Shown piece after piece: positions 16,208 through 35,955 of a stretch of DNA of 64,000 bases. The position numbers and the translations under genes were made by a program. The stretch covers positions 5,393-69,392 of the forward strand of contig CALLOB010000037.1 of NCBI GenBank assembly GCA_938005315.1. Reading direction: 5' to 3'. The notes below the pieces were generated by a model. That model did not search any database and was not told the origin of the DNA. It saw nothing but the letters and a program-made list of their open reading frames with translations. Numbering within the stretch: position 1 is the first letter of the stretch; every line of letters starts with the position of its first letter. Source of the DNA: an uncultured Phycisphaerae bacterium (GTDB lineage: Bacteria > Planctomycetota > Phycisphaerae > UBA1845 > PWPN01).

Positions 16208-17385
16208 ATGAGTGATTCCTCCACGGAGCCAGGTGCGCCCACGACGCATCCGGGCACCCCGCTGGCCGAATCGATGGATCTCGGCCGGCGCGTGTTCGAG
16301 TGCCTGTCACTGGGGCTGGCGGTGTTCGACCGGCGGCTGCAGGTGGTTCGCCACAACCCGGCGGCGGCCTTCCTGATCGGCGCGCATCGCTCGATCGCCG
16401 AGGCCCTGGCCGACGCCACGGTGGACTCCCGTTACCAGGACTGGGCCCGGGAATTGAACGAGGTTCTCCAGGACCGCCGCCCGCGGCGTTTCGACCAGGT
16501 GATCTACCGGCAGGGGGGTCGCGAGGATCGTCTGCTGAACCTCGTCTGTGTCCCGATGCTGGATGCCGCCGGGCTGGAGTGCACGGGCGGGACGCTGGTC
16601 ATCGAGGATGTCACCGCTGCGACCAGCATGGCCCAGCGTCTGGCGGTCTCCGAGCGCATGGCCGCCGTCGGCAAGCTGGCCGCCCGGGTGGCCCACGAGC
16701 TGAACAATCCGCTGGACGGCATCCTGCGTTATCTGAATCTCTCCCTGCGAGCCCTCGATCTGGGGCGGACCGAGAGGCTTTCCGACTATCTGCAGCAGGC
16801 TCGCACCGGTCTGATGCGCATGGCCGAGATCGTCCGGGAGCTGGTCGAGTTCTCACGCAGCACGCACACCGCGTTCGAGGACGCGGGCATCAACAGCATC
16901 GTCGAGGAGGCGGTCAAGGTCATGGCCGAGCAGGCCGTGCGTGCGGGCGTTTCGATCGTCTGCACGCTGACCGAGAACATGCCGGCCATCCGGGGCACGA
17001 GTCTCTTCCAGGTGTTCTGCAATCTGATCAAGAACGCCCTGGACGCCATGCCCGACGGGGGGACGCTGATGATCTCGACCGAACGCACCGAAACGGATGT
17101 TCTGATCCGTATGGCGGACACGGGGATCGGGCTGCCGGCCGACGCCTCCCGGATCTTCGAGCCGTTCTTCACCACCAAGCCGCCGGGCAAGGGCACCGGT
17201 CTGGGCCTGGCGATCTGCCGGGAGATCGTGGAGAAGTACAACGGCCAGATCCTGGCCGAGCGTCGGCCAGAGGGCGGGAGCCTGTTCACCGTGCGGATTC
17301 CGCTGTCGGCCTGCGCCACGATCCGCCAGCCCGGCAGCGAACCCTTCCGGGACCGTCCGCCGGCCCGGGGCGAGGAGGCCCGATC

Positions 17386-17389
<4 letters not shown>
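16208..17389 (+). CDS. PAS-domain sensor histidine kinase (NtrB-like)
   Basis: H-box AHELNNPL, N-box [32 protein letters not shown] region at the N-terminus. Confidence 0.93.
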
Positions 17390-18786
<1,397 letters not shown>

Positions 18787-18978
18787 TCGGATACGACACC
18801 GGCCCGCCGGCGCCTCTGTCTGCTCTGCCTGCGGCCGTAAGCGGCCCAAGCCGCCGGCCGGGCTTGAAAAGCCCGGTTTGCCGGGGTATGAAAACGATCT
18901 GAGGCGGCACGGCCCCGACGCCGGGTAGGATTCCCGGTGCCGGACCGCCCGACGGCTCCGGCCGCGCGAGGAACCAGC

Positions 18979-19497
18979 ATGAAGCTGCCTTCCACCAGGG
19001 GCGGCGGGAGTCTCTGCGACCGCTGCGTGGCCCTGTGCTGCCGATACTTCGCCTTCGAGATCGATCGTCCCCGGACGCGCCGGGATTTCGACGACATCCG
19101 CTGGTTCCTGCTGCACGAGGACGCGGCCGTTTTCGTCGAGGACGGCAAGTGGTACCTGCAGGTGAACCGGCGGTGCAGGGCCCTGCTCCCGGACAACCGC
19201 TGCGGCATCTACGAGAGCCGGCCGGCCATCTGCCGGGCCTACACGCCCAGGGAGTGCGACTGGCACGGGGACGAGTACGACTACGACAAGCTCTTCGTCG
19301 ACCCTGAGCAGATCATGGCCTACGCCCGCGAGTACCTGGCCGCACGGCGCCGGCGCCAGGCCGCCCGCCGGGCGAGGGGCCGCAAGACCCCGGCGCGTCC
19401 CGGGCGGCGCGGTGCCCGCAAGCTGCCCCGGTCCAGCAGAGCCGTGGCGAAAGGCCGCCGGGCGCGGGCGACAGGCGGTGTGCTCAAGTCGGCATGA
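18979..19497 (+). CDS. YkgJ-family (CxxCxxxCC) cysteine-cluster protein
   Basis: CDRCVALCC...CRAL...CGIYESRPAICRAY. Very basic C-terminal tail. Confidence 0.85.
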   Translation: MKLPSTRGGGSLCDRCVALCCRYFAFEIDRPRTRRDFDDIRWFLLHEDAAVFVEDGKWYLQVNRRCRALLPDNRCGIYESRPAICRAYTPRECDWHGDEYDYDKLFVDPEQIMAYAREYLAARRRRQAARRARGRKTPARPGRRGARKLPRSSRAVAKGRRARATGGVLKSA

Positions 19498-19533
19498 GGC
19501 GACCGGGGCGTCCTCTCCCGGACGGGCAACGGC

Positions 19534-20838
19534 ATGAAGTTCCAGGCGGTCAAGGGCACGCGCGACTTTTACCCCGAGGACATGGCGATCCGCAACTGGA
19601 TCACCGAGGCCTGGCGGCGGGTGTCGCTGCGCAACGGCTTCGAGGAGTACGACGGGCCGATCCTGGAGCTGCTCGACCTGTACCGGGCCAAAAGCGGCGA
19701 AGGTATCGTCTCGGAGCTGTTTCACCTCACCGACCGGGGCGACCGGGAGCTGGCCATCCGTCCCGAGATGACCCCCACGCTGGCCCGGATGATCAACGCC
19801 CGGGCCGGCGCCCTGCCGCGGCCGATCAAGTGGTTCAGCATGCCCCGGCTGTGCCGGGCCGAACGCCCGCAGCGCGGCCGGCTCCGCGAGTTCTTCCAGT
19901 GGAACATCGACATCGTCGGCCTGGATGATGCGGTCACCGACGCCGAATGCATCTTCGTCGCCCTGGACTTCTTCCGTGAGATCGGCCTGACGCCCGCCGA
20001 CATGGTCATGAAGGTCAACTGCCGGGCCCTGCTGGCGGCGCTGCTGTCGGCCCGGGGATTCGCCCCCCCGAGACACGCGGCCATTTTTGCGGTGCTGGAC
20101 AAGCGCGACAAGCTGCCGCCGGAGGCCTTCGCCGAGGCGGTCGAGAAGGTCTGCGCTTCGGCCGGGGAGCGAGAGACGCTGATCTCGATCAGCCAGGCCC
20201 GCGGTACCGAGGGGCTCGAGATCGTCGCCCGAGCGGCGGCCGGAGACGCCCGGGCGGAATCGTCGCTGGCCCGTCTGCGCAGCGTGCTGGATCTCCTGCA
20301 CCGCATGGAGGTGGGGGAGTACTGCAGCTTCGACATGGGCGTGGTCCGCGGGCTGGCCTACTACACCGGTACGGTCTTCGAGGGCTTCGGGCGAGGCGGT
20401 TTCAGCCGCGCGATCTGCGGCGGCGGGCGCTACGATCAGCTTCTGGAAAGCCTCGGGGGCCCGCCGATGTCGGGCGTCGGCTTCGGGACCTCCGACGTGG
20501 TGATTCAGGAGCTGCTGGAGGAGTTGGGGCGGATTCCGTCCCAGGCCCGGACCACGAGGCGCACCGAGGTATTCCTGATCGACGCGGCTCCCGAGATGTT
20601 CGACGCGGTGCTCGTCCTGGCCGCCCGACTGCGGCGGCGGGGGGTCGGCGCGGAGTTCAGCTACCGTCGGCAGAGTCTGGGCAAACAGCTCAAGCAGGCC
20701 TCGGCCGCCGGGGCGCTCCGGGTCGTCATCGTGGGCGAGGAGTACAAGGCCCGCGGGCACCTGGTGGTCAAGGACATGGCCAGCGGTCGGCAACAGGAGA
20801 TCCCGGCCGATGCATTCTGCGAGAACCCTTGCATGTGA
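19534..20838 (+). CDS. hisS: Histidyl-tRNA synthetase
   Basis: KGTRDF, RPEMT, RAERPQRGRLREFFQ, RGLAYYTG, GGGRYD motifs and anticodon domain. Confidence 0.97.
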   Translation: MKFQAVKGTRDFYPEDMAIRNWITEAWRRVSLRNGFEEYDGPILELLDLYRAKSGEGIVSELFHLTDRGDRELAIRPEMTPTLARMINARAGALPRPIKWFSMPRLCRAERPQRGRLREFFQWNIDIVGLDDAVTDAECIFVALDFFREIGLTPADMVMKVNCRALLAALLSARGFAPPRHAAIFAVLDKRDKLPPEAFAEAVEKVCASAGERETLISISQARGTEGLEIVARAAAGDARAESSLARLRSVLDLLHRMEVGEYCSFDMGVVRGLAYYTGTVFEGFGRGGFSRAICGGGRYDQLLESLGGPPMSGVGFGTSDVVIQELLEELGRIPSQARTTRRTEVFLIDAAPEMFDAVLVLAARLRRRGVGAEFSYRRQSLGKQLKQASAAGALRVVIVGEEYKARGHLVVKDMASGRQQEIPADAFCENPCM

Positions 20839-20905
20839 GGAACCGGCGCTTTGCGGGACGTCGCCGGCCGGCGGGCATGCGGCCACGGCGGGACCTGCGA
20901 CCCGC

Positions 20906-24699: not shown

Positions 24700-24855
24700 A
24701 GCTGGCGGTCGAGTTCCCTGCGCGGCAGCCGGGTGGGGTAGAATACCGCCGCGAGTGACCGCATGGCCCGCAAAGGCGCCTGTCGCTGCACGCATCACGT
24801 GGATCAGGCTGAGAACAGAATTCCATGGTCGCGGATGATCCCAGGGAGGATACAG

Positions 24856-27423
24856 ATGCCGGTGAGAGCCCGTTCGATCGTTGTGCTGTTGCTTCTGACC
24901 GCCTCGTCCGGAACCGCGGCCGAGGCGCTACCGGAGTACCGCAAGGACCTGCTGCCGGCGGCGCGGCTCGCGCTGCAGGGGTTCATGGTCCGCGCGGTCA
25001 ATCCCGTCCCGGAGCACCCCGAGCTGCGGCGGGCCCTGTTCATATGCATGTGCCTGCCGCACGTCCGACTGGACCACGCCCAGTGGGACTGGGGCGACTG
25101 CACCGGCCGGGCGGTCCTGTGCTGGCAGTATCTGCGGGAGATGACCGGTGACACGGCCACCGGGCGGGATGTCGAGCGCGGCCAGCTTGACGCCATGGAG
25201 TCCATCCTGGCTCCGGATACGGGCATGCCGTGCGTGCCGGAGCGGTCCAGGCCGGCCGAGGGGCTTTATCACTACCAGATGTGGGACCAGGGGCGCACGC
25301 TGCGGGCCCTGGTGGCGCTGTGGCAGGCGGCTGCCACAGCGGAGGAGAAGGCGGCCGCCCGGCAGCGCATCGACCGCATGATCGCCTCCCTGCGGGCCCT
25401 GGCGGTGCGCGGGCAGGATTCCCGCTACGGAACTTTCGCCGTCTATCCCTTCGATCATGCCACCGGCAAGGAGCGGGGCGACGACATCTGGGTTCCCCGG
25501 GCCGGCCAGCTCATCGAGCCGCTCGCGGTGTACTGGGACGCCGCGGAGCAGCCGGAGGTGGGGCAGTTCCTGGACGAGCTGGTCGCCGGCGTGCTGTCCG
25601 GCCGGGAGGGACATCGGCCTGAGGAGCCCGACAGCGGCCATTTCGTGTTCGGGCCGGACGGCTCATTCCGGGGCCACTTTCACGCCCACGTCTCGACGGC
25701 ACTGGGTGTGGCCCGCTATGGGCAGGCCCTCGTCCGGCGCGGGCAGCGCGAGCGGGGACTGAGCCTGCTGCGCTGGTCGCGAAAGGTCTACGACTGGACG
25801 CTGGCGCCCGAGAACGTGAACGCCGGTTCGTCCTGGGGATGGTTCCCGGAAAACACCGGTCACGACGGTCAGTCGGTCCGGGAGATGTCCGAGCTGTGCT
25901 GCGTCGCGGACATGGTCGAATTCGCAGCCTGCCTGGCCGGTTGCGCCCGACTCGATGCGGAGCTGGCCTCCTGGGATGCGCTGTGGGACCACGTGGAGCG
26001 CTACACCTTTAACAGCATCCTGCCGACCCAGTTCCGGCCGGACGAGGATTACCGCCGGGCGTTGCGCCAGGCTCAACGGCTCAAGCGGATCGTGCGAAAC
26101 GGCTACACTTCGCTGGAGACCGACGCCGCCGGCTGTTTCAACCACGAGACCGTCGGCCGTCAGACGCTGACCGGAGACGGCCCCGGGGGCGTATCCCAGT
26201 ACCTCTACGGCATCGAGTACAACGGCCGGCGGGCGTGGTTCGGCTATCAGTCGCTGCAGCCGGTCCGGCCGCATGGCCTGACAGTCCAGGAGCCGCCGGT
26301 TGGAGACCGTGGGGGGGTTCGAGGCGTGGTCGCCACCACCGACGGTGATGTGGCGATCGAACATCGGACCGCCTGCGGCGACGGCCCCTGGGTCGTGCGC
26401 ACGTTCACCGTCACCAACCGCGGCCGCAACGACCTGAGCGGAGTCCGGCTGTTTTTCTCGGCCAATCTGGAAACGGAAACGCCCTTGACGGAGCGAGGTG
26501 AGCTGGATCCGCGGACCTGCGCCGTCATGGCGGTCGGATCGACGTGCCGCGTCGGTCTGCGCGGCGAACCGCAGGCCGACTTCTGCTCGACCGGCGATGC
26601 GGTCGAACTGCTGGGCGATGCCTGCTTCGATTGGCATGCTCCGCAAGCGGCATTCGAAGGCAACGCCGGAGGGGTGATCGGCTGGCACCTGGGGCGCATC
26701 CGGCCGGGCGAATCCGCGACCGTACAGGCCACGCTGGCCCGCGGCGCCGACGAGGCGGAGCTGACCCGGGCACTGCAGCATGGCGAGTTTCCCGAGCGGC
26801 CGCTGCCGGCCGGGGAGGAGGCCGATTGGGCGGCTGCCCGGCGTCTGGAGGGGGCCTGGGTCGGAATGTTCACGCCCAACGAACTCTGCGGCCTGGACGA
26901 CGACGGCCTGCCGGTGACCTACAACGGCTGCTGCTGCAACTATTCCGGGCCCCGCGCGCTGCATGCCTGCTGGGAGGCGGCTGTCGATGACACCGACGGG
27001 GAGTTGCGGGTGCGTCTGCCTGTCGACCGGCTTTGTGCAGCGGCCGAACAGGCCGTGGTGGAAACCGCCGAAGTGGTTCGTCAGCGGATCTCGCTGAAGG
27101 CCGCGCGCCGGCTTGCCGTGCGGATACCTGATTGGGCCGACCTCGCGGCCGTCAACGTCGTCGATGAGTCCGATCGGCCGGTGCCATGCCGGACGGCGGG
27201 GCGTTGGCTGGATCTCGGCTCGCTCCCGGCGGGGGCCAGGCTGACCGTGACCTATCCCATGGTCGAGCGGAAGACGACCGAGCGCGTCGGCGGCAGCGGC
27301 GAAACCATGGGATACTCACCCGTCGAGAAGAAGCGGACGTTTACCGCAACCTGGCGCGGCAACCGGGTGATCTGCCTGGAGCCGGCGGGGCACTGGTGGC
27401 CCGTTTTCCCCCCATGCCGGTGA
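24856..27423 (+). CDS. Large secreted (alpha/alpha)-barrel protein, GH127/GH146-like
   Basis: Signal peptide. ELCCVADM and GCCCNYSG resemble the GH127 ETC and CCxxN Zn-Cys motifs. C-terminal VRIPDWA beta domain. Confidence 0.6.
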   Translation: MPVRARSIVVLLLLTASSGTAAEALPEYRKDLLPAARLALQGFMVRAVNPVPEHPELRRALFICMCLPHVRLDHAQWDWGDCTGRAVLCWQYLREMTGDTATGRDVERGQLDAMESILAPDTGMPCVPERSRPAEGLYHYQMWDQGRTLRALVALWQAAATAEEKAAARQRIDRMIASLRALAVRGQDSRYGTFAVYPFDHATGKERGDDIWVPRAGQLIEPLAVYWDAAEQPEVGQFLDELVAGVLSGREGHRPEEPDSGHFVFGPDGSFRGHFHAHVSTALGVARYGQALVRRGQRERGLSLLRWSRKVYDWTLAPENVNAGSSWGWFPENTGHDGQSVREMSELCCVADMVEFAACLAGCARLDAELASWDALWDHVERYTFNSILPTQFRPDEDYRRALRQAQRLKRIVRNGYTSLETDAAGCFNHETVGRQTLTGDGPGGVSQYLYGIEYNGRRAWFGYQSLQPVRPHGLTVQEPPVGDRGGVRGVVATTDGDVAIEHRTACGDGPWVVRTFTVTNRGRNDLSGVRLFFSANLETETPLTERGELDPRTCAVMAVGSTCRVGLRGEPQADFCSTGDAVELLGDACFDWHAPQAAFEGNAGGVIGWHLGRIRPGESATVQATLARGADEAELTRALQHGEFPERPLPAGEEADWAAARRLEGAWVGMFTPNELCGLDDDGLPVTYNGCCCNYSGPRALHACWEAAVDDTDGELRVRLPVDRLCAAAEQAVVETAEVVRQRISLKAARRLAVRIPDWADLAAVNVVDESDRPVPCRTAGRWLDLGSLPAGARLTVTYPMVERKTTERVGGSGETMGYSPVEKKRTFTATWRGNRVICLEPAGHWWPVFPPCR

Positions 27424-30374: not shown

Positions 30375-31028
30375 ATGCCACGAACGGAAGCCACAACCGA
30401 CCGGGTTGCAGCCCGCCGACGCAGCCGTCGGCCGGGCCGGCCCGGTGCAGTAAAGGAGGCCGATCTCGCCCGGACAGCCTCCCGTTGGCCCGGGGCCGTA
30501 CGCCACGACACGCCGGCCGTTCAACCTCGAAGCCGCAAAGCCGGCCGGACCGCAAAGGTGAACCGCCGGCCCGGCGTCTCCGGCCGCCGGGGCAAGGCCC
30601 GGCGGCGAGCCGTCGATCGCAGCCGCAACAGCCGCCGGGTCCGGATCGCCGTCCGGGTCGATATCCGTCTTTCCGGGACACCGCTTAACGACGCCGTAAC
30701 CGCGACCCTGGAAGGTTCGGGTCGTGGCTTGGAGGCCGCCGCCAAGGCCCTCGTCCGGCGGACGGCGCCCGAACGTCTGGCAACGCTGGTCGCCGGGATG
30801 GCCCACAAGGTCCGGGCAGCCATCCTCATGTACCTGCTGGGCGGGCCGGCCACACACAAGGCCCTGGTGGCTCGAACCGGCTTGGACGGCGGACCGCTTT
30901 ACCATCACCTGCGTGAGCTGAGATCCGCCGGCCTCATCGGCCCCAAGCAGCGGGATGTCTACGACCTGACGCGACAGGGACGCCGGGCCATCCTCACGGG
31001 CCTCGTCCTCGAGAGAACGGTCCGGTAG
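30375..31028 (+). CDS. Winged helix-turn-helix (ArsR-like) regulator with basic N-terminal tail
   Basis: LVAGMAHKVRAAILMYL...GGPLYHHLRELRSAGLI...YDLTRQG. Confidence 0.75.
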   Translation: MPRTEATTDRVAARRRSRRPGRPGAVKEADLARTASRWPGAVRHDTPAVQPRSRKAGRTAKVNRRPGVSGRRGKARRRAVDRSRNSRRVRIAVRVDIRLSGTPLNDAVTATLEGSGRGLEAAAKALVRRTAPERLATLVAGMAHKVRAAILMYLLGGPATHKALVARTGLDGGPLYHHLRELRSAGLIGPKQRDVYDLTRQGRRAILTGLVLERTVR

Positions 31029-31323: not shown

Positions 31324-31713
31324 TCAGACCGCCTGCTTCCGGGAGCCGTCCCTCAACGCCGGTCGCTGCGACAACGTGAAGATCACCAGCTCTTCGCCGG
31401 TGACGGTGCTGATGTCGTGATGCAGGCTCACCATGCTGACGCCCGTGACGTCCTGAACCAGCTTCTCGAGCACCGGCCTGGCCGTCTCGATGAGCTGGAT
31501 TCGCACCTGTTTGAGCAGATCCCGGCCTCTTTCCGGCGAGAGAGACTTCACGAGTTGCTGCTCGGCGGCGGTCAGCACGCCCTGCAGACGGATAACCAGC
31601 AGATCGCCGATCAGGTGGGCGTGAATCCCGGTCGGTCCGCGACCCATGTACTCCTGTTCAAAACGGGTCATTCCTTCGCAAATGGCGGCCTCGATCTGTC
31701 CCTGGGTGTTCAT
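31324..31713 (-). CDS. DUF2294 (MpsC-like) protein
   Basis: FEQEYMGRGP, LQGVLTAAEQQL, GRDLLKQVR and SLHHDISTVTGEELVIFTL motifs. Confidence 0.88.
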   Translation of the reverse strand: MNTQGQIEAAICEGMTRFEQEYMGRGPTGIHAHLIGDLLVIRLQGVLTAAEQQLVKSLSPERGRDLLKQVRIQLIETARPVLEKLVQDVTGVSMVSLHHDISTVTGEELVIFTLSQRPALRDGSRKQAV

Positions 31714-31786
31714 GGCGTTTTCAGTCCTGCAGGCCCGGCCGGAGTCGCCCCGATCCGATGGTGCGTGCACGTCTCATCCGGCCGAT

Positions 31787-31815
31787 TTGCAGTCGGAGCG
31801 CGACGCGGCTATTAT
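31787..31815 (+). promoter_or_regulatory. Putative sigma-70 promoter of the structured leader
   Basis: TTGCAG-N17-TATTAT, with an overlapping TATAAT. Confidence 0.5.
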
Positions 31816-31821
31816 AATGCA

Positions 31822-31940
31822 CGCCGGACAACAGAGCCGAATGGCCAATGCCTGACGGTGGTGGTTGTTCCGGCGGTCGGATGACTAGCCGAAGGGCAAA
31901 CCCGGCATCGCCGGGTGGGCCCGTTGAATAGTATGCCGGC
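31822..31940 (+). ncRNA. Candidate cis-regulatory leader RNA (riboswitch/attenuator)
   Basis: Stem CGCCGGACAAC/GTTGTTCCGGCG, then CCGGCAT(31902-08)/ATGCCGG(31933-39) competing with CCCGGC-ATC-GCCGGG and with the terminator arm. Confidence 0.6.
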
Positions 31941-31981
31941 GCGGCTGAACACCCCAGGGTGCGCGGCCTCGTCGGTTTTTT
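31936..31981 (+). terminator. Intrinsic terminator (expression platform of the leader)
   Basis: CCGGCG.../...CGTCGG stem with inner CACC/GGTG pairing, followed by TTTTTT. Confidence 0.65.
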
Positions 31982-32172
31982 GTTGGCCTCAGAGGGTTCT
32001 CCGGTCGCCTTCCGGCAGCCGGGGCGAGGCCGCGGGTCGTTTACGGCAGCGCGCCGGACCCGTTCGAAATCAGAGGCGCCCGCTGGAGCCCTGCGGTGCG
32101 GCGTGCGGCCAATACTCGTCATTGAGGACCGGCCGCCGGTTTTCCAGAAGGCACGGCATTGGAGGAACGGAA

Positions 32173-32451
32173 ATGCTTACTGTCACACCGGGCGCCGGCG
32201 TGCGCCTGCTGCGCCGGCTGAGGCGCAAGGATGTCGCCGAGGACATGGCGATGAGGTTCACGCGAGGCGCGGCGGCCTGGAAGCTGCGACTGGATCACAT
32301 GCGCCCCTCCGACACCGTCATTGTTCACCAGGGAAGGACGGTCCTGCTTCTTGACGAGGCCGTCGCCCGGGAGATGACCAACATGACGCTGGGCGTCAGG
32401 AAGACCGAAGCCGGGCCTCGATTCGCGCTGGCCGGCGGGCATGTCGTCTGA
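32173..32451 (+). CDS. Small HesB/IscA-like fold protein lacking cysteines
   Basis: GGAGG RBS. MLTVT..A start and D.VIVHQGRTVLLLD....M..MTL pattern typical of HesB-like proteins. No Cys. Confidence 0.6.
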   Translation: MLTVTPGAGVRLLRRLRRKDVAEDMAMRFTRGAAAWKLRLDHMRPSDTVIVHQGRTVLLLDEAVAREMTNMTLGVRKTEAGPRFALAGGHVV

Positions 32452-32486
32452 AGGCGGGCCGACGAGACGCGAAACGGGGAGACTTG

Positions 32487-32801
32487 ATGGCACGCAGAAA
32501 CCGTCCGACACAGGTCAAGCGAGAGCGCGAGCAGCAGAAGCGCGACCGTCAGCGGAAGAAGGCCGAGAAGGCCGCAGCCAAACGCCAACGACGGGCGACC
32601 GCCCGCGGCACCGGTGCCGGGACCCTCGATGAGAATGCCCCGAGGTTTGCCGGCCTGCCGGAAGGTGAACCATCCGGGCTGCAGACGCTCCCTTCGGACA
32701 CTCGGACGCCCGAGCCGGGGCTCAGTCGCCGGGAACCCGGTGAGCCCGGCCGCGAGCATGGAGGCGCAACGCATGGAACTGCCCCGCCGCAGGCCGGATG
32801 A
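32487..32801 (+). CDS. Small basic (Arg/Lys-rich) hypothetical protein
   Basis: GGGGAG RBS. MARRNRPTQVKREREQQKRDRQRKKAEKAAAKRQRR charged helix. Confidence 0.55.
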   Translation: MARRNRPTQVKREREQQKRDRQRKKAEKAAAKRQRRATARGTGAGTLDENAPRFAGLPEGEPSGLQTLPSDTRTPEPGLSRREPGEPGREHGGATHGTAPPQAG

Positions 32802-34680
32802 CGCCTGCCTTCCCGACGGCTCGATGCGGGACGCGATCGCCCGCCTGCAGGGCAGCGGCCTGGTCCGCCACGTGCGCGTCGGCATCGTGTACGCCTTCGA
32901 CTTCCGCACCCGGATGCTGCCCTACTGGTACACCGACAAGCGCATGGCTCCCTGTTCGGTTCGTACCCTCGGCGATGTACTGGATGCCGCGGGTTTCAGG
33001 CACGTGCGGATCGTCCTGCAGCAGTGGAACCCGCGTTTCCGTCCCAGTGCCGCACGTCTGGACGGCAGGCCCCTGGACCTTCTGCTGGTGTCGGCGATGC
33101 AGGTCCACGCCGAGCCGGCCTACGACCTGATCCGCGACGCCCACCGCCTCGGCGATGCCCGGCCGCTCATCCTGGCGGGCGGCCCCAAGGCCGCCTATGA
33201 GCCCACGGATATGCTGGAGATCGGCCCGGAGCCCGGCGTCGGCGCCGACTGCGTCGTCACCGGCGAGGCCTTCGTCCTCCTGGATCTCCTGCTGGCAATG
33301 GTCCAGGTCCGAAAGCACGACGAACCCATCCGCCGGACCTTCGACCGCGCCGCACGCACGAACGCTCTGCACCGGATCCCCGGACTCGTCTATCTCGATC
33401 CTCATCGCCAGGCCGGACCGCCGCTGGCCGTTCACACCGGCGTTCAGCGGCTGCTGAGGGATCTGGACGAGTTGCCGGTGCCCGACGCCGGCTTCCGGAT
33501 GCTCGAGCCCCCCCACCGGGGTCCGGGTTTGCGGCCCCGGCCGCTGGATCCGCGCAAGGTGGCCTCGCACTCGCCCATGGCCTCGATCGTCTCCACCCAG
33601 GGCTGCCGGTTCAACTGCTCCTTCTGCGGCATCCCCGCCCTGAACCAGCGCACCTGGCGGCACAAGAGCGCCCGGCGGCTGACCGACGAGATCCGGCACC
33701 TGCACGAAACCTTCGGCATCAAGGTGTTTTTCGGCACCGACGACAACTTCTTCAACAACCGCGAAACGCTCCTGAGCATGATCACCACCCTGGCCGCGGA
33801 ACGCACCCGCGGCGTTCCCCTGGGCGAGGTCGTCCATATTTACACCGAAGCCACGCAATCGGACGTCTACCGACACCGCGATCTTCTGCCGCTGTGCCGC
33901 CGCGCCGGCCTGCGCGGCATCTGGTTCGGCATCGAGGACATCACCGCCGAGCTGGTCAACAAGGGACAGTGCGCCGGCAACACCGCCGAGCTGTTCGCGA
34001 TGCTGAGGAAGCTCGGCATCGAGCCGATGGCCATGCTGATCCACAGCGATCGCCAGCCGCTCCGCAGTAGGGGCGACGACCTGTCCGGGCTGCTGAATCA
34101 GGCCGACTATCTTTTCCGGCACGGCGCCGTCTCGTATCAGTGCACATACCTGGGCCCGGCCGTCGGCACGCGCGATTTCGAGCCGGCCGCCGAGTCGGGG
34201 GCGATCTTCCGTGCGGTCGGCGGCAGGCCGGTCCCCGAGGCCTTCTACGACGGCAACCACGTCAGTGCGTCGATGCATCCCGAGCCCTGGAAGCGGCAGC
34301 TGAATATCCTGCGGGCCTACGCCCGTTTCTACAACCCGTTGAACACCGTCCGGGCGATGTTCTGTTTCCGCAACGATGCCGTCTCGGCCAAGCGGCTGAT
34401 CTTCCAGATCGCCGGCCAGATCGGCCTGCTGATGACCCTGCCCAAGCTGATCGGCTGGGCCTGGCGCCTGAAGCGGGGACCGATCGAGCCCTGGAACGGT
34501 GTGCAGCCGGCGAGAATCCCGATCGTGGATGCCGCCAGCGGCGAGGAGATCCAGTGGGCCATCCGCCGGCCGCCGAGTCTGCATACCGTCTCACGGCCGC
34601 CGGCATCGGATCGCACCGGCAGCCGTCGGCATCCGCGGGGCGTCCCGGATGTCCGTTCAGCGACCGTCGGCGGTTTGTGA
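32758..34680 (+). CDS. B12-binding-domain radical SAM protein
   Basis: GCRFNCSFC cluster motif and DDNF. N-terminal ILAGGP...VVTGEA cobalamin-binding-like region. Confidence 0.88.
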   Translation: MEAQRMELPRRRPDDACLPDGSMRDAIARLQGSGLVRHVRVGIVYAFDFRTRMLPYWYTDKRMAPCSVRTLGDVLDAAGFRHVRIVLQQWNPRFRPSAARLDGRPLDLLLVSAMQVHAEPAYDLIRDAHRLGDARPLILAGGPKAAYEPTDMLEIGPEPGVGADCVVTGEAFVLLDLLLAMVQVRKHDEPIRRTFDRAARTNALHRIPGLVYLDPHRQAGPPLAVHTGVQRLLRDLDELPVPDAGFRMLEPPHRGPGLRPRPLDPRKVASHSPMASIVSTQGCRFNCSFCGIPALNQRTWRHKSARRLTDEIRHLHETFGIKVFFGTDDNFFNNRETLLSMITTLAAERTRGVPLGEVVHIYTEATQSDVYRHRDLLPLCRRAGLRGIWFGIEDITAELVNKGQCAGNTAELFAMLRKLGIEPMAMLIHSDRQPLRSRGDDLSGLLNQADYLFRHGAVSYQCTYLGPAVGTRDFEPAAESGAIFRAVGGRPVPEAFYDGNHVSASMHPEPWKRQLNILRAYARFYNPLNTVRAMFCFRNDAVSAKRLIFQIAGQIGLLMTLPKLIGWAWRLKRGPIEPWNGVQPARIPIVDAASGEEIQWAIRRPPSLHTVSRPPASDRTGSRRHPRGVPDVRSATVGGL

Positions 34681-35955
34681 GCCGCGGGCCGAACCGCCGG
34701 ACACCACCAGCACGGCGATGTGGCCGCCGAATCCCATGGAAATCTTGAGGACGGCGCCGGGCTCCAGTTCGACCTGATCCCGCGGCCAGTACAACGGCGG
34801 CAGCCGGGGATCGGGCTCCAGCAGTGTGCTCAGCCCGGGTTGCCGGCCTTGCGCGACCGACAGGCATGCAATCGCCGTTTCCACCGCCCCGGCCGCTCCC
34901 AGGAGATGCCCGATGGCCCCCTTGATCGACAGAACCGGGACTCGTGTGGTCTGAGACCCCAGCAGTGCGGCGATGGCCAGCGCCTCGTATGCGTCATTGG
35001 ACCGCGTGCCCGTGCCGTGGGCGTGAATCGCCCGAATATCGCACGGATCGACTGAGGCCCGTCGGCAGGCGGTCCGAAAGGCGTATTCCAGCGACGCGGC
35101 GTCGGCCGACGTGGCCGTGAGCCCGGCCGGATCCGTGGCACAGGCCCAGCCCGAAATCTCGGCCAGGATCGGTGCACCCCGGGCAGCGGCCCCCCGCCGC
35201 GTTTCCAGTACCAGAATCGCAGCCCCCTCGCCGGGAACGAAACCCTCCCGCGTCGCATCGAACGGTCGGCAGGCCCAGGCAGCCCCCAGCTCCGGATGAG
35301 GCCCGGCCAGAACGCCCATCCGATCGAAAGCCGCCAGCCAGAGCGGCGCCAGCGAGGCATCGCTGCCGCCGCACAGTACCCGGTCCGCGCGGCCCTCGAC
35401 GATGAGCTGCGCCCCGCGAATGATCGACGACGTGCCGGTCGCACATGCGGCCACATCGGCCAGGGCGCCGCCCTGCAGACCGTATCGCTCGGCCACCGCG
35501 CGGGCCGGCCCGTCCGGCGGAATGTCCGGCAGCAGGACAGCCAGGTCGGCCGGCAGACCTGGCCTCCGTGGACCGCTCCGTCGAGCCGAGGTCCGCCGCA
35601 TGGCCTGCAGCGCGGCCGAAAGCGTCAGGATGCCGCCCTTGCTCGTACCCACACAGGCCGCGACGCGATCGGGGGACAGATTCCCGACCGGATCGGTCCC
35701 CAGGCCCGCCTGCAACACCGCCTCCTCGGCGGCGGCGACGGCCAACCGGCAGACCCGATCCCGCCGGGTCATGCCCGTCGGAGGCCGGTGTTCCGGCACG
35801 ACCGCGCCGATCCAGCGATGCCGCCCCGGAGCGGCTTGCCGCTCCAGCGGCCCGACCGTCCGCACGCCGTCCAGCAGGGCTCTCCAGGACTGCATGGCCC
35901 CGACACCCGCGGGCGAGACGATTCCGACGCCGGTGACCACGACACCTTCGGACAT
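34657..35955 (-). CDS. Beta-ketoacyl-ACP synthase (FabF-like)
   Basis: VVVTGVG, AACATG (Cys), HAHGTGT, KGAIGHLLGA and GFGG motifs. Confidence 0.9.
   Translation of the reverse strand: MSEGVVVTGVGIVSPAGVGAMQSWRALLDGVRTVGPLERQAAPGRHRWIGAVVPEHRPPTGMTRRDRVCRLAVAAAEEAVLQAGLGTDPVGNLSPDRVAACVGTSKGGILTLSAALQAMRRTSARRSGPRRPGLPADLAVLLPDIPPDGPARAVAERYGLQGGALADVAACATGTSSIIRGAQLIVEGRADRVLCGGSDASLAPLWLAAFDRMGVLAGPHPELGAAWACRPFDATREGFVPGEGAAILVLETRRGAAARGAPILAEISGWACATDPAGLTATSADAASLEYAFRTACRRASVDPCDIRAIHAHGTGTRSNDAYEALAIAALLGSQTTRVPVLSIKGAIGHLLGAAGAVETAIACLSVAQGRQPGLSTLLEPDPRLPPLYWPRDQVELEPGAVLKISMGFGGHIAVLVVSGGSARGSQTADGR

Follow-up and report, generated by a model that had tools for sequence, protein, structure and literature searches.

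A conserved attenuator RNA in the Phycisphaerae and the proposal that the orphan protein MpsC (DUF2294) acts on it as an antiterminator

Background

Antitermination proteins with RNA targets include BglG, SacY and LicT, with their ribonucleic antiterminator (RAT) hairpins, and HutP, while EutV, AmiR and NasT are ANTAR response regulators. The A-type iron-sulphur (Fe-S) carriers have three conserved cysteines. The locus described here lies at positions 31324-34680 of a 64,000 nt stretch, hereafter the window, from an uncultured Phycisphaerae bacterium (assembly GCA_938005315.1, contig CALLOB010000037.1, positions 5,393 to 69,392). It contains a leader RNA with mpsC (DUF2294) transcribed divergently on one side and, on the other, genes for a HesB-like protein, a small basic protein and a B12-type radical S-adenosylmethionine (SAM) enzyme. 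The leader is an uncatalogued attenuator that is tied to an orphan protein family and lies outside every named family tested.

The analysis proposes a testable function for MpsC/YbcI, an orphan family also present in Bacillus subtilis and Staphylococcus aureus; the B. subtilis protein was recovered as a control match. With the leader comes a further class of RNA, through which planctomycetes could control cold and stress responses, and a B12 radical SAM family that is widespread and has no name becomes a candidate for lipid modification.

The leader RNA

The leader is almost certainly, on comparative grounds, an RNA switch with two mutually exclusive conserved folds, and regulated termination is predicted. 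A conserved, aptamer-like antiterminator RNA of 65 nt (31876-31940, + strand), identified with models R1 and R2, by covariation and from a sequence-only alignment, is overlapped by an intrinsic terminator hairpin with its U-tract (31935-31984, + strand), and the 5' arm of the terminator is the 3' strand of the antiterminator. The hairpin itself occupies 31935-31976 and is followed by TTTTTGTT. The fold of the leader has a z score of -3.8, none of 200 shuffled sequences being equally stable. As in a transcription attenuator, a conserved antiterminator is thus mutually exclusive with a U-tailed terminator.

When the intergenic region was used in BLASTN, the same stretch of ~110 nt was matched in 10 of 80 radical SAM loci, and alignment of the leaders gave a conserved core of 65 nt, followed by a hairpin of variable sequence and a U-tract. 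Model R1 was built from 15 aptamer cores, with the terminator left out, and found 69 further copies in 22 genomes of the main sample, which is made up of 149 other genomes of the class (G labels denote genomes and L labels loci). The aptamer consists of a single long stem, interrupted by internal loops that are conserved and rich in purines; the unpaired purines are near-invariant, and an AGUA strand opposite GAC presumably resembles the loop-E/S-turn motif. In the 68 distinct copies that were not used in training, 91% of cells are paired and there are two-sided changes in 15 of 20 pairs; no shuffle out of 500 scored as high, and controls slid along the alignment gave 21-48%. Nearly the same fold is obtained from an alignment made from sequence alone.

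An overlapping terminator is present in 65 of the 68 non-training copies that have enough flanking sequence, compared with 17 of 300 random positions. These terminators start in the last 8 nt of the RNA core and mostly end 41-47 nt further on, and the three-way complementarity that comes from sharing a strand is seen in 59 of the 69 copies. In an energy model, which leaves out non-canonical loops and kinetics, the terminator form is preferred in 67 of 67 copies at 37 °C, by a median of 8.3 kcal/mol, and in 66-67 of 67 between 10 and 50 °C. Since the terminator form wins in every copy in this model, a helper would be needed to open the leader.

Upstream of the leader there appears to be a σ70-like promoter (31786-31818, + strand; TTTGCA and TATTAT separated by 18 nt, 9/12 matches, 0.2 expected), within which there is a perfect TATAAT at 31813-31818. 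A -10-like hexamer is found upstream of 34 of the 69 RNA copies, where shuffled sequences gave a mean of 16.4 and a maximum of 26.

A simple terminator scan of the window found none, missing that of the leader. No Rfam 15 family matched the window at the gathering score or at E≤10, barring a chance isrA match inside mpsC, and none matched four further loci covering both RNA subtypes. Literature searches on DUF2294, MpsC/MpsAB, ybcI and planctomycete riboswitch candidates gave no account of the leader RNA or of a regulatory MpsC, although supplementary motif tables and papers that are not open could hold one. In a 2026 preprint on B. subtilis MpsAB (10.64898/2026.09.08.750065), a term search found none of the words ybcI, MpsC, terminator, riboswitch or leader.

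Association with MpsC

The divergent mpsC (31324-31713, - strand) encodes a protein of 129 aa that matches PF10057 (E 8e-35), belongs by its tree position to subtype A of a stress clade, and is the proposed antiterminator. It is the sole copy found in the genome of the window. The first-pass annotation had described a DUF2294 gene facing an attenuated leader, and this match, with the 65-nt leader and the terminator overlapping it, agrees with that description.

That annotation had also held the RNA and DUF2294 to be a portable unit and had proposed their co-occurrence as the check. Within the main sample, 17 genomes have both RNA and MpsC, 5 have the RNA only, 10 have MpsC only, and 117 have neither, so that MpsC is found in 17 of 22 RNA-positive and 10 of 127 RNA-negative genomes. 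The co-occurrence stands in these 17 genomes, which span 11 families and encode the subtype of MpsC present in the window, and fails in the five with RNA alone. The genes behind the RNA vary, and judged from this distribution the leader and MpsC are a portable pair, irrespective of what lies downstream.

There are up to 10 copies of the RNA in genomes with MpsC and exactly one in each of the five without it. Sixteen of the 69 copies are on contigs for which no mpsC is listed, although their genomes have one elsewhere. In the 10 MpsC-only genomes R1 found no RNA, and R2 gave marginal matches only in their loci. Across a phylum sample of 149 genomes, R2 matched in 3 (two strong matches with MpsC and one weak match without) and MpsC was present in 13. 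In G281, a weak RNA copy ahead of mpsC-B was missed by the genome-wide search.

In a tree, 119 MpsC domains fall into three main groups. The 51 tips of subtype A, to which the protein of the window belongs, come without exception from RNA-positive loci or genomes; the sister subtype has 17 tips, all from RNA-negative genomes; and 45 of the 47 tips of subtype B are RNA-positive. The sister-subtype mpsC stands ahead of DUF4914, phosphoenolpyruvate carboxykinase or hexapeptide-repeat genes, and is flanked in at least five loci by a second form of the RNA, in which the order of stems and loops is kept while the letters differ. The bicarbonate or Na+ signal suggested at first for the subtype in the window is not supported by this pattern, as CO2-metabolism genes go with the different RNA and MpsC subtype and the subtype in the window fronts cold and stress genes. 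The second RNA form, with a U-tailed hairpin, was seen 3' of the sister-subtype mpsC at L112:3162-3210(-), L115:5318-5367(+), L118:2878-2925(-), L235:2850-2898(+) and L240:3467-3516(+), followed by DUF4914 in L112 and L115 and by a major facilitator superfamily gene in L118.

The usual module consists of divergent mpsC-A, the RNA, mpsC-B and the cargo. The window has no mpsC-B; none was found in its genome, and there is no remnant of one between the terminator and the hesB-like gene. MpsC-A and MpsC-B are homologous (hhalign probability 98). Among 39 subtype-A proteins, R25, K68, R71, R79, H98 and R121 are invariant and K2, R42, R64 and H99 are near-invariant, and this set of conserved basic residues is kept in MpsC-A alone. 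A receiver domain is present in 40 of 112 longer MpsC homologues and absent from the MpsC of the window. Tandem A-A and B-B fusions also occur, which suggests that MpsC dimerises. Records P0024-P0028, P0032 and P0100 comprise tandem MpsC fusions and single-record fusions to an acyltransferase or a desaturase, the latter possibly being read-through artefacts. Searches of solved structures by sequence gave no relative of MpsC.

Genes behind the RNA

Up to three downstream open reading frames (ORFs) were called for each of the 69 RNA copies, and 98 of the 125 unlabelled ones were scanned against NCBIfam, with subsets scanned against Pfam. The first gene behind the RNA encodes an ice-binding protein in four genomes (G019, G088, G141 and G047, the last with a split gene), a desaturase in two (G023 and G118) and a squalene-hopene cyclase in one. 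Further first genes encode an ice-binding-like adhesin, YeaQ/YmgE-type proteins, KaiC, histidine kinases and a sigma-factor-like protein; the genes for KatE (catalase) and CsrA sit deeper. The ice-binding family PF11999 is present in 8 of 22 RNA-positive and 9 of 127 other genomes, and the gene behind the RNA is the sole ice-binding gene of its genome in G019, G088 and G141.

In Synechocystis, desaturases, RbpA and the helicase CrhR are described as induced by cold (PMC6789579). The kinds of cargo, aided by this parallel, make cold or general stress a likelier signal than bicarbonate, and on a modest balance of the gene content cold or stress is the likely signal.

Several of these loci have features of their own. 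In L133:4937-10521 (G088:C91), six RNA copies are packed into 5.6 kb, surrounding mpsC-A together with genes for an ice-binding and a sigma-factor-like protein. KaiC lies behind the RNA in L136:3161-5594 and L131:7076-8587, with KaiB-like and PAS genes also in L136, and the pattern of ORF sizes at L132, L135, L143 and L148 is as at the KaiC loci. A protein above the cut-off for the antiphage (CBASS) phospholipase NF041079 is encoded directly behind an RNA copy at L127:4695-5726.

The radical SAM enzyme and its cassette

Behind the leader of the window are genes for a cysteine-free protein of 92 aa with the IscA/HesB fold (32173-32451, + strand), identified by match of its predicted structure, a small basic protein of 104 aa (32487-32801, + strand), and a B12-type radical SAM enzyme of 635 aa from an unnamed planctomycete family (32773-34680, + strand). 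With mpsC, these four ORFs are supported as real genes by family matches, conservation and codon bias. The basic-peptide ORF and the start of the radical SAM gene share 29 nt, an overlap also present in locus L001, and the order of genes first reported, a Cys-less HesB-like protein, a basic protein and an overlapping B12 radical SAM gene, was recovered from the ORFs, the fold and this overlap.

The HesB-like ORF has no Pfam or NCBIfam match. Its predicted structure (predicted local distance difference test score 90) resembles IscA, SufA, YneR and DsrR (best E 1e-5, template modelling scores 0.53-0.70), and it has no cysteine, nor is there a conserved cysteine column among 20 homologues. It cannot therefore serve as a conventional Fe-S carrier. 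In the basic peptide, lysine and arginine make up 40% of the first 45 aa; its composition and alignment show a K/R/E coil of ~36 aa that is kept and a tail that varies, without a conserved core and with almost no cysteine. It has 363 cluster representatives at E≤0.001, a count that low complexity may inflate, and is likely to be a nucleic-acid-binding stress protein. An atlas look-up gave no named family for either protein.

The enzyme matches PF04055 above the cut-off, with an invariant CxxxCxxC motif at C278/C282/C285; its match to the B12-binding family PF02310 (26 bits, E 9e-6) is under the cut-off of 32.1. The predicted fold is nearest to those of TsrM, AprD4, OxsB and MgmA. Its N-terminal domain is flavodoxin-like, a radical SAM core follows, and at the C-terminus there are long helices (residues 505-568), which from their sequence may touch the membrane. 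It falls far under the cut-off of every named NCBIfam family (best BchE, 60 of 481 bits), no HpnP model is among the matches, and a sequence search of solved structures gave nothing. Its relatives are chiefly from Phycisphaerae or other Planctomycetota.

Across 80 genome loci of the enzyme, the RNA is upstream in 13, a hesB-like gene is present in 16, a second radical SAM gene in 14, an RRM gene in 13, the basic peptide in 8, a DEAD helicase in 5 and an adjacent desaturase in 4. Behind the radical SAM gene there is a desaturase, from one of two families, in 4 of the 13 RNA-led loci and in none of the other 67, some of which end early. Among 56 loci from metagenomes that were selected through the HesB-like protein, 21 have the RNA (one of them cut), and in 26 the enzyme or a 5' remnant of it follows directly. 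The dedicated three-gene enzymatic system of the first-pass annotation does not hold, as the order hesB-like, peptide, radical SAM is found at a single genome locus out of 80 and at three metagenome loci out of 56. With gene make-up varying in this way over both sets, this is a flexible cassette and not a fixed trio.

The RNA-led enzyme copies do not form one clade (approximately unbiased (AU) test, p 0.0007, with 47 of 92 sequences in the test). Their presence in at least two clades suggests repeated placement under RNA control. The tree position of the enzyme in the window hints at independent recruitment, a candidate that was set aside since grouping with the main RNA-led clade stays compatible (AU p 0.096, 2000 replicates). 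A desaturase swapped into the enzyme slot in L162 was also rejected, because a remnant of the 3' end of the enzyme precedes the desaturase; an apparent desaturase in L212 is the same 3'-end match.

Related copies and remnants were seen elsewhere. The genome of the window has a second copy of the family (G000:C85:7199-8947, 47% identity) without the RNA, which groups with the RNA-led copies of L176 and L190. A second B12 radical SAM family, as at L006:8656-10602, is found in 14 of the 80 loci, with an unannotated protein of 162 aa in 6. What is left of the radical SAM gene in L165, L166, L168, L201 and L204 is a short stretch of its 5' end, flanked by the hesB-like gene and the RRM gene.

For desaturation by a B12 radical SAM enzyme there is a precedent in the archaeal lipid desaturase Ted (10.1101/2025.10.20.683597), and the wider lipid-modifying family has been reviewed (PMC13459092). 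There is perhaps an even chance that the enzyme of the window is a membrane-lipid modifier, acting by methylation or oxygen-independent desaturation. The small peptide had been offered as the other possible substrate; only its charged N-terminus is conserved, and a lipid would be the better guess.

Proposed mechanism and alternatives

In the proposed mechanism, the 3' strand of the leader has two alternative partners, the 5' strand of the leader itself and the downstream arm of the terminator, and the terminator would be the default state. The divergently encoded MpsC-A, a trans-acting factor that is probably a dimer with a basic surface, would bind and stabilise the antiterminator form and so let transcription enter the cassette. 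It may be switched by a ligand, by phosphorylation in those homologues that are fused to a receiver domain, or by the paralogue MpsC-B, missing here. The output is probably cold and general-stress acclimation, and the three genes here would be the cargo of a mobile cassette that elsewhere carries RRM proteins, a DEAD-box helicase, the second B12 radical SAM enzyme and fatty-acid desaturases. That MpsC-A directly operates the switch is considered probable; MpsC-dependent antitermination of a cold and stress regulon, with an enzyme that is likely lipid-modifying, is as a whole favoured by a narrow measure. A bolder version, in which MpsC would be a new class of RNA-binding antiterminator with subtypes co-diverged with their RNA targets into CO2 and cold/stress branches, the latter controlling a B12 radical SAM enzyme that fluidises membranes without oxygen as a counterpart to desaturases, is speculative.

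Several observations weigh against MpsC-dependent antitermination of such a regulon. Five of the 22 RNA-positive genomes have no MpsC detectable by family, single-protein or alignment searches; two of these copies are at contig ends, and G023 (99% complete), G077 and G121 are real exceptions. Of the 69 RNA copies, 47 are within 5 kb of an mpsC, and the co-occurrence in 17 of 22 genomes is inflated, because linkage of the RNA and mpsC permits joint transfer and related genomes are not independent. Support for the subtype-A stress clade is 0.61. An obligatory antiterminator role fits S. aureus poorly, since the mpsC deletion mutant has no growth defect in air and mpsAB alone complements Escherichia coli (PMC6689103). 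Many of the downstream genes belong to general stress and signalling (KatE, YeaQ/YmgE, KaiC/KaiB, kinases, CsrA), and for some 60 of the 98 ORFs scanned NCBIfam gave no match at 1e-15. Neither a desaturase nor an ice-binding gene was found in the genome of the window. The enzyme family is present in 55 of 151 genomes of the class, where only the copy in the window stands behind the RNA, and its putative lipid role is drawn from gene neighbours.

Some of these points would equally fit a riboswitch proper, one that senses a small molecule or ion, such as a stress second messenger, with the mpsC genes as travelling companions or regulated output. The near-invariant unpaired purines of the internal loops, the five genomes with RNA and no MpsC, the absence of a phenotype in the S. 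aureus mutant (PMC6689103), and mpsC-B being the first gene behind the RNA in 12 of 69 copies can all be read in this way. However, at no fewer than 11 of the 69 copies MpsC-A is oriented away from the RNA and is therefore not its output, the RNA subtype follows that of MpsC-A, multiple copies of the RNA occur solely where MpsC-A is present, and MpsC, being fused to receivers, has the mark of a regulatory output domain. A riboswitch is unlikely.

It is more doubtful still that MpsC acts negatively or indirectly, favouring termination or making, removing or binding a signal read by the RNA or another factor, as the terminator wins unaided in the energy model and the conserved basic residues of subtype A are absent from subtype B. 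Such a role would be consistent with the normal growth of the S. aureus mutant (PMC6689103), the survival of orphan RNA copies, and a weak Pfam match of MpsC to the sensor domain PF22309 (E 0.02). Cold-type cargo, and the RRM genes in 13 of the 80 radical SAM loci, might also point to a leader that senses cold as a thermometer, or one that generic cold-shock or RRM chaperones open, in either case without MpsC. This is very unlikely: at 10 °C the terminator form is still preferred in 66 of 67 copies, and the margin is wider than at 37 °C, so that an equilibrium thermometer is unsupported by the energy model, and the coupling to MpsC would be left without explanation. That the three genes are a dedicated peptide-modification system, a ribosomally synthesized and post-translationally modified peptide (RiPP) precursor with its radical SAM maturase, is highly improbable despite the 29-nt overlap here and in L001 and a peptide gene directly ahead of the enzyme in 3 of 80 genome loci, since the arrangement is absent from the other 77, with the peptide often elsewhere in the cassette, there is no conserved core peptide, and the scores for RiPP families, 38 and 28 bits, are far from the cut-offs of 750 and 282.

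Neighbouring genes

The 3' end of the radical SAM gene has a convergent overlap with a FabF-like ketoacyl synthase gene (34657-35955, - strand), which is preceded by bioB (biotin synthase); L001 has ORFs with identical starts in this region. An ArsR-type winged-helix gene (30375-31028, + strand) converges on mpsC, and is present in L001 too. Elsewhere in the window, an ORF of 886 aa (24763-27423, + strand) has no Pfam match at E 0.1 and one of 1366 aa (16789-20886, - strand) has none at 1e-12.

Comparison with known systems

MpsC-dependent antitermination, as proposed here, would be most like the systems of BglG, SacY and LicT with RAT, and of HutP: the antiterminator is weaker than the terminator with which it overlaps, and would be held by a dedicated protein encoded nearby. 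There is, however, no CAT, PRD or HutP domain in MpsC, where only PF10057 is above the cut-off, and the RNA of the window is 65 nt long with three internal loops and has stress genes as its cargo. The ANTAR regulators are alike in having a receiver fused to a small output domain, as in the longer MpsC homologues, and a multi-copy regulon, but MpsC has no ANTAR domain and its leader is one long stem in place of twin hexaloop hairpins. The IscA, SufA, YneR and DsrR proteins share their fold with the HesB-like protein of the window, which differs from the A-type carriers in having no cysteine.

The PF10057 protein is held in common with MpsABC/DabAB bicarbonate uptake as described in PMC6689103. 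The absence of an MpsAB/DabAB transporter nearby, noted in the first-pass annotation, extends further, as neither DabA nor MpsB was found across the genome of the window (90% complete), and the CO2-linked MpsC is a sister clade with a different form of the RNA. The lipid-modifying B12 radical SAM enzymes, which include HpnP/HpnR, the ladderane enzyme, archaeal Ted and methylases (PMC13459092, 10.1101/2025.10.20.683597), have a B12 and radical SAM architecture that the enzyme of the window would share, and the desaturase neighbours of its family suggest a lipid role. The enzyme nevertheless lies far under all the named NCBIfam cut-offs.

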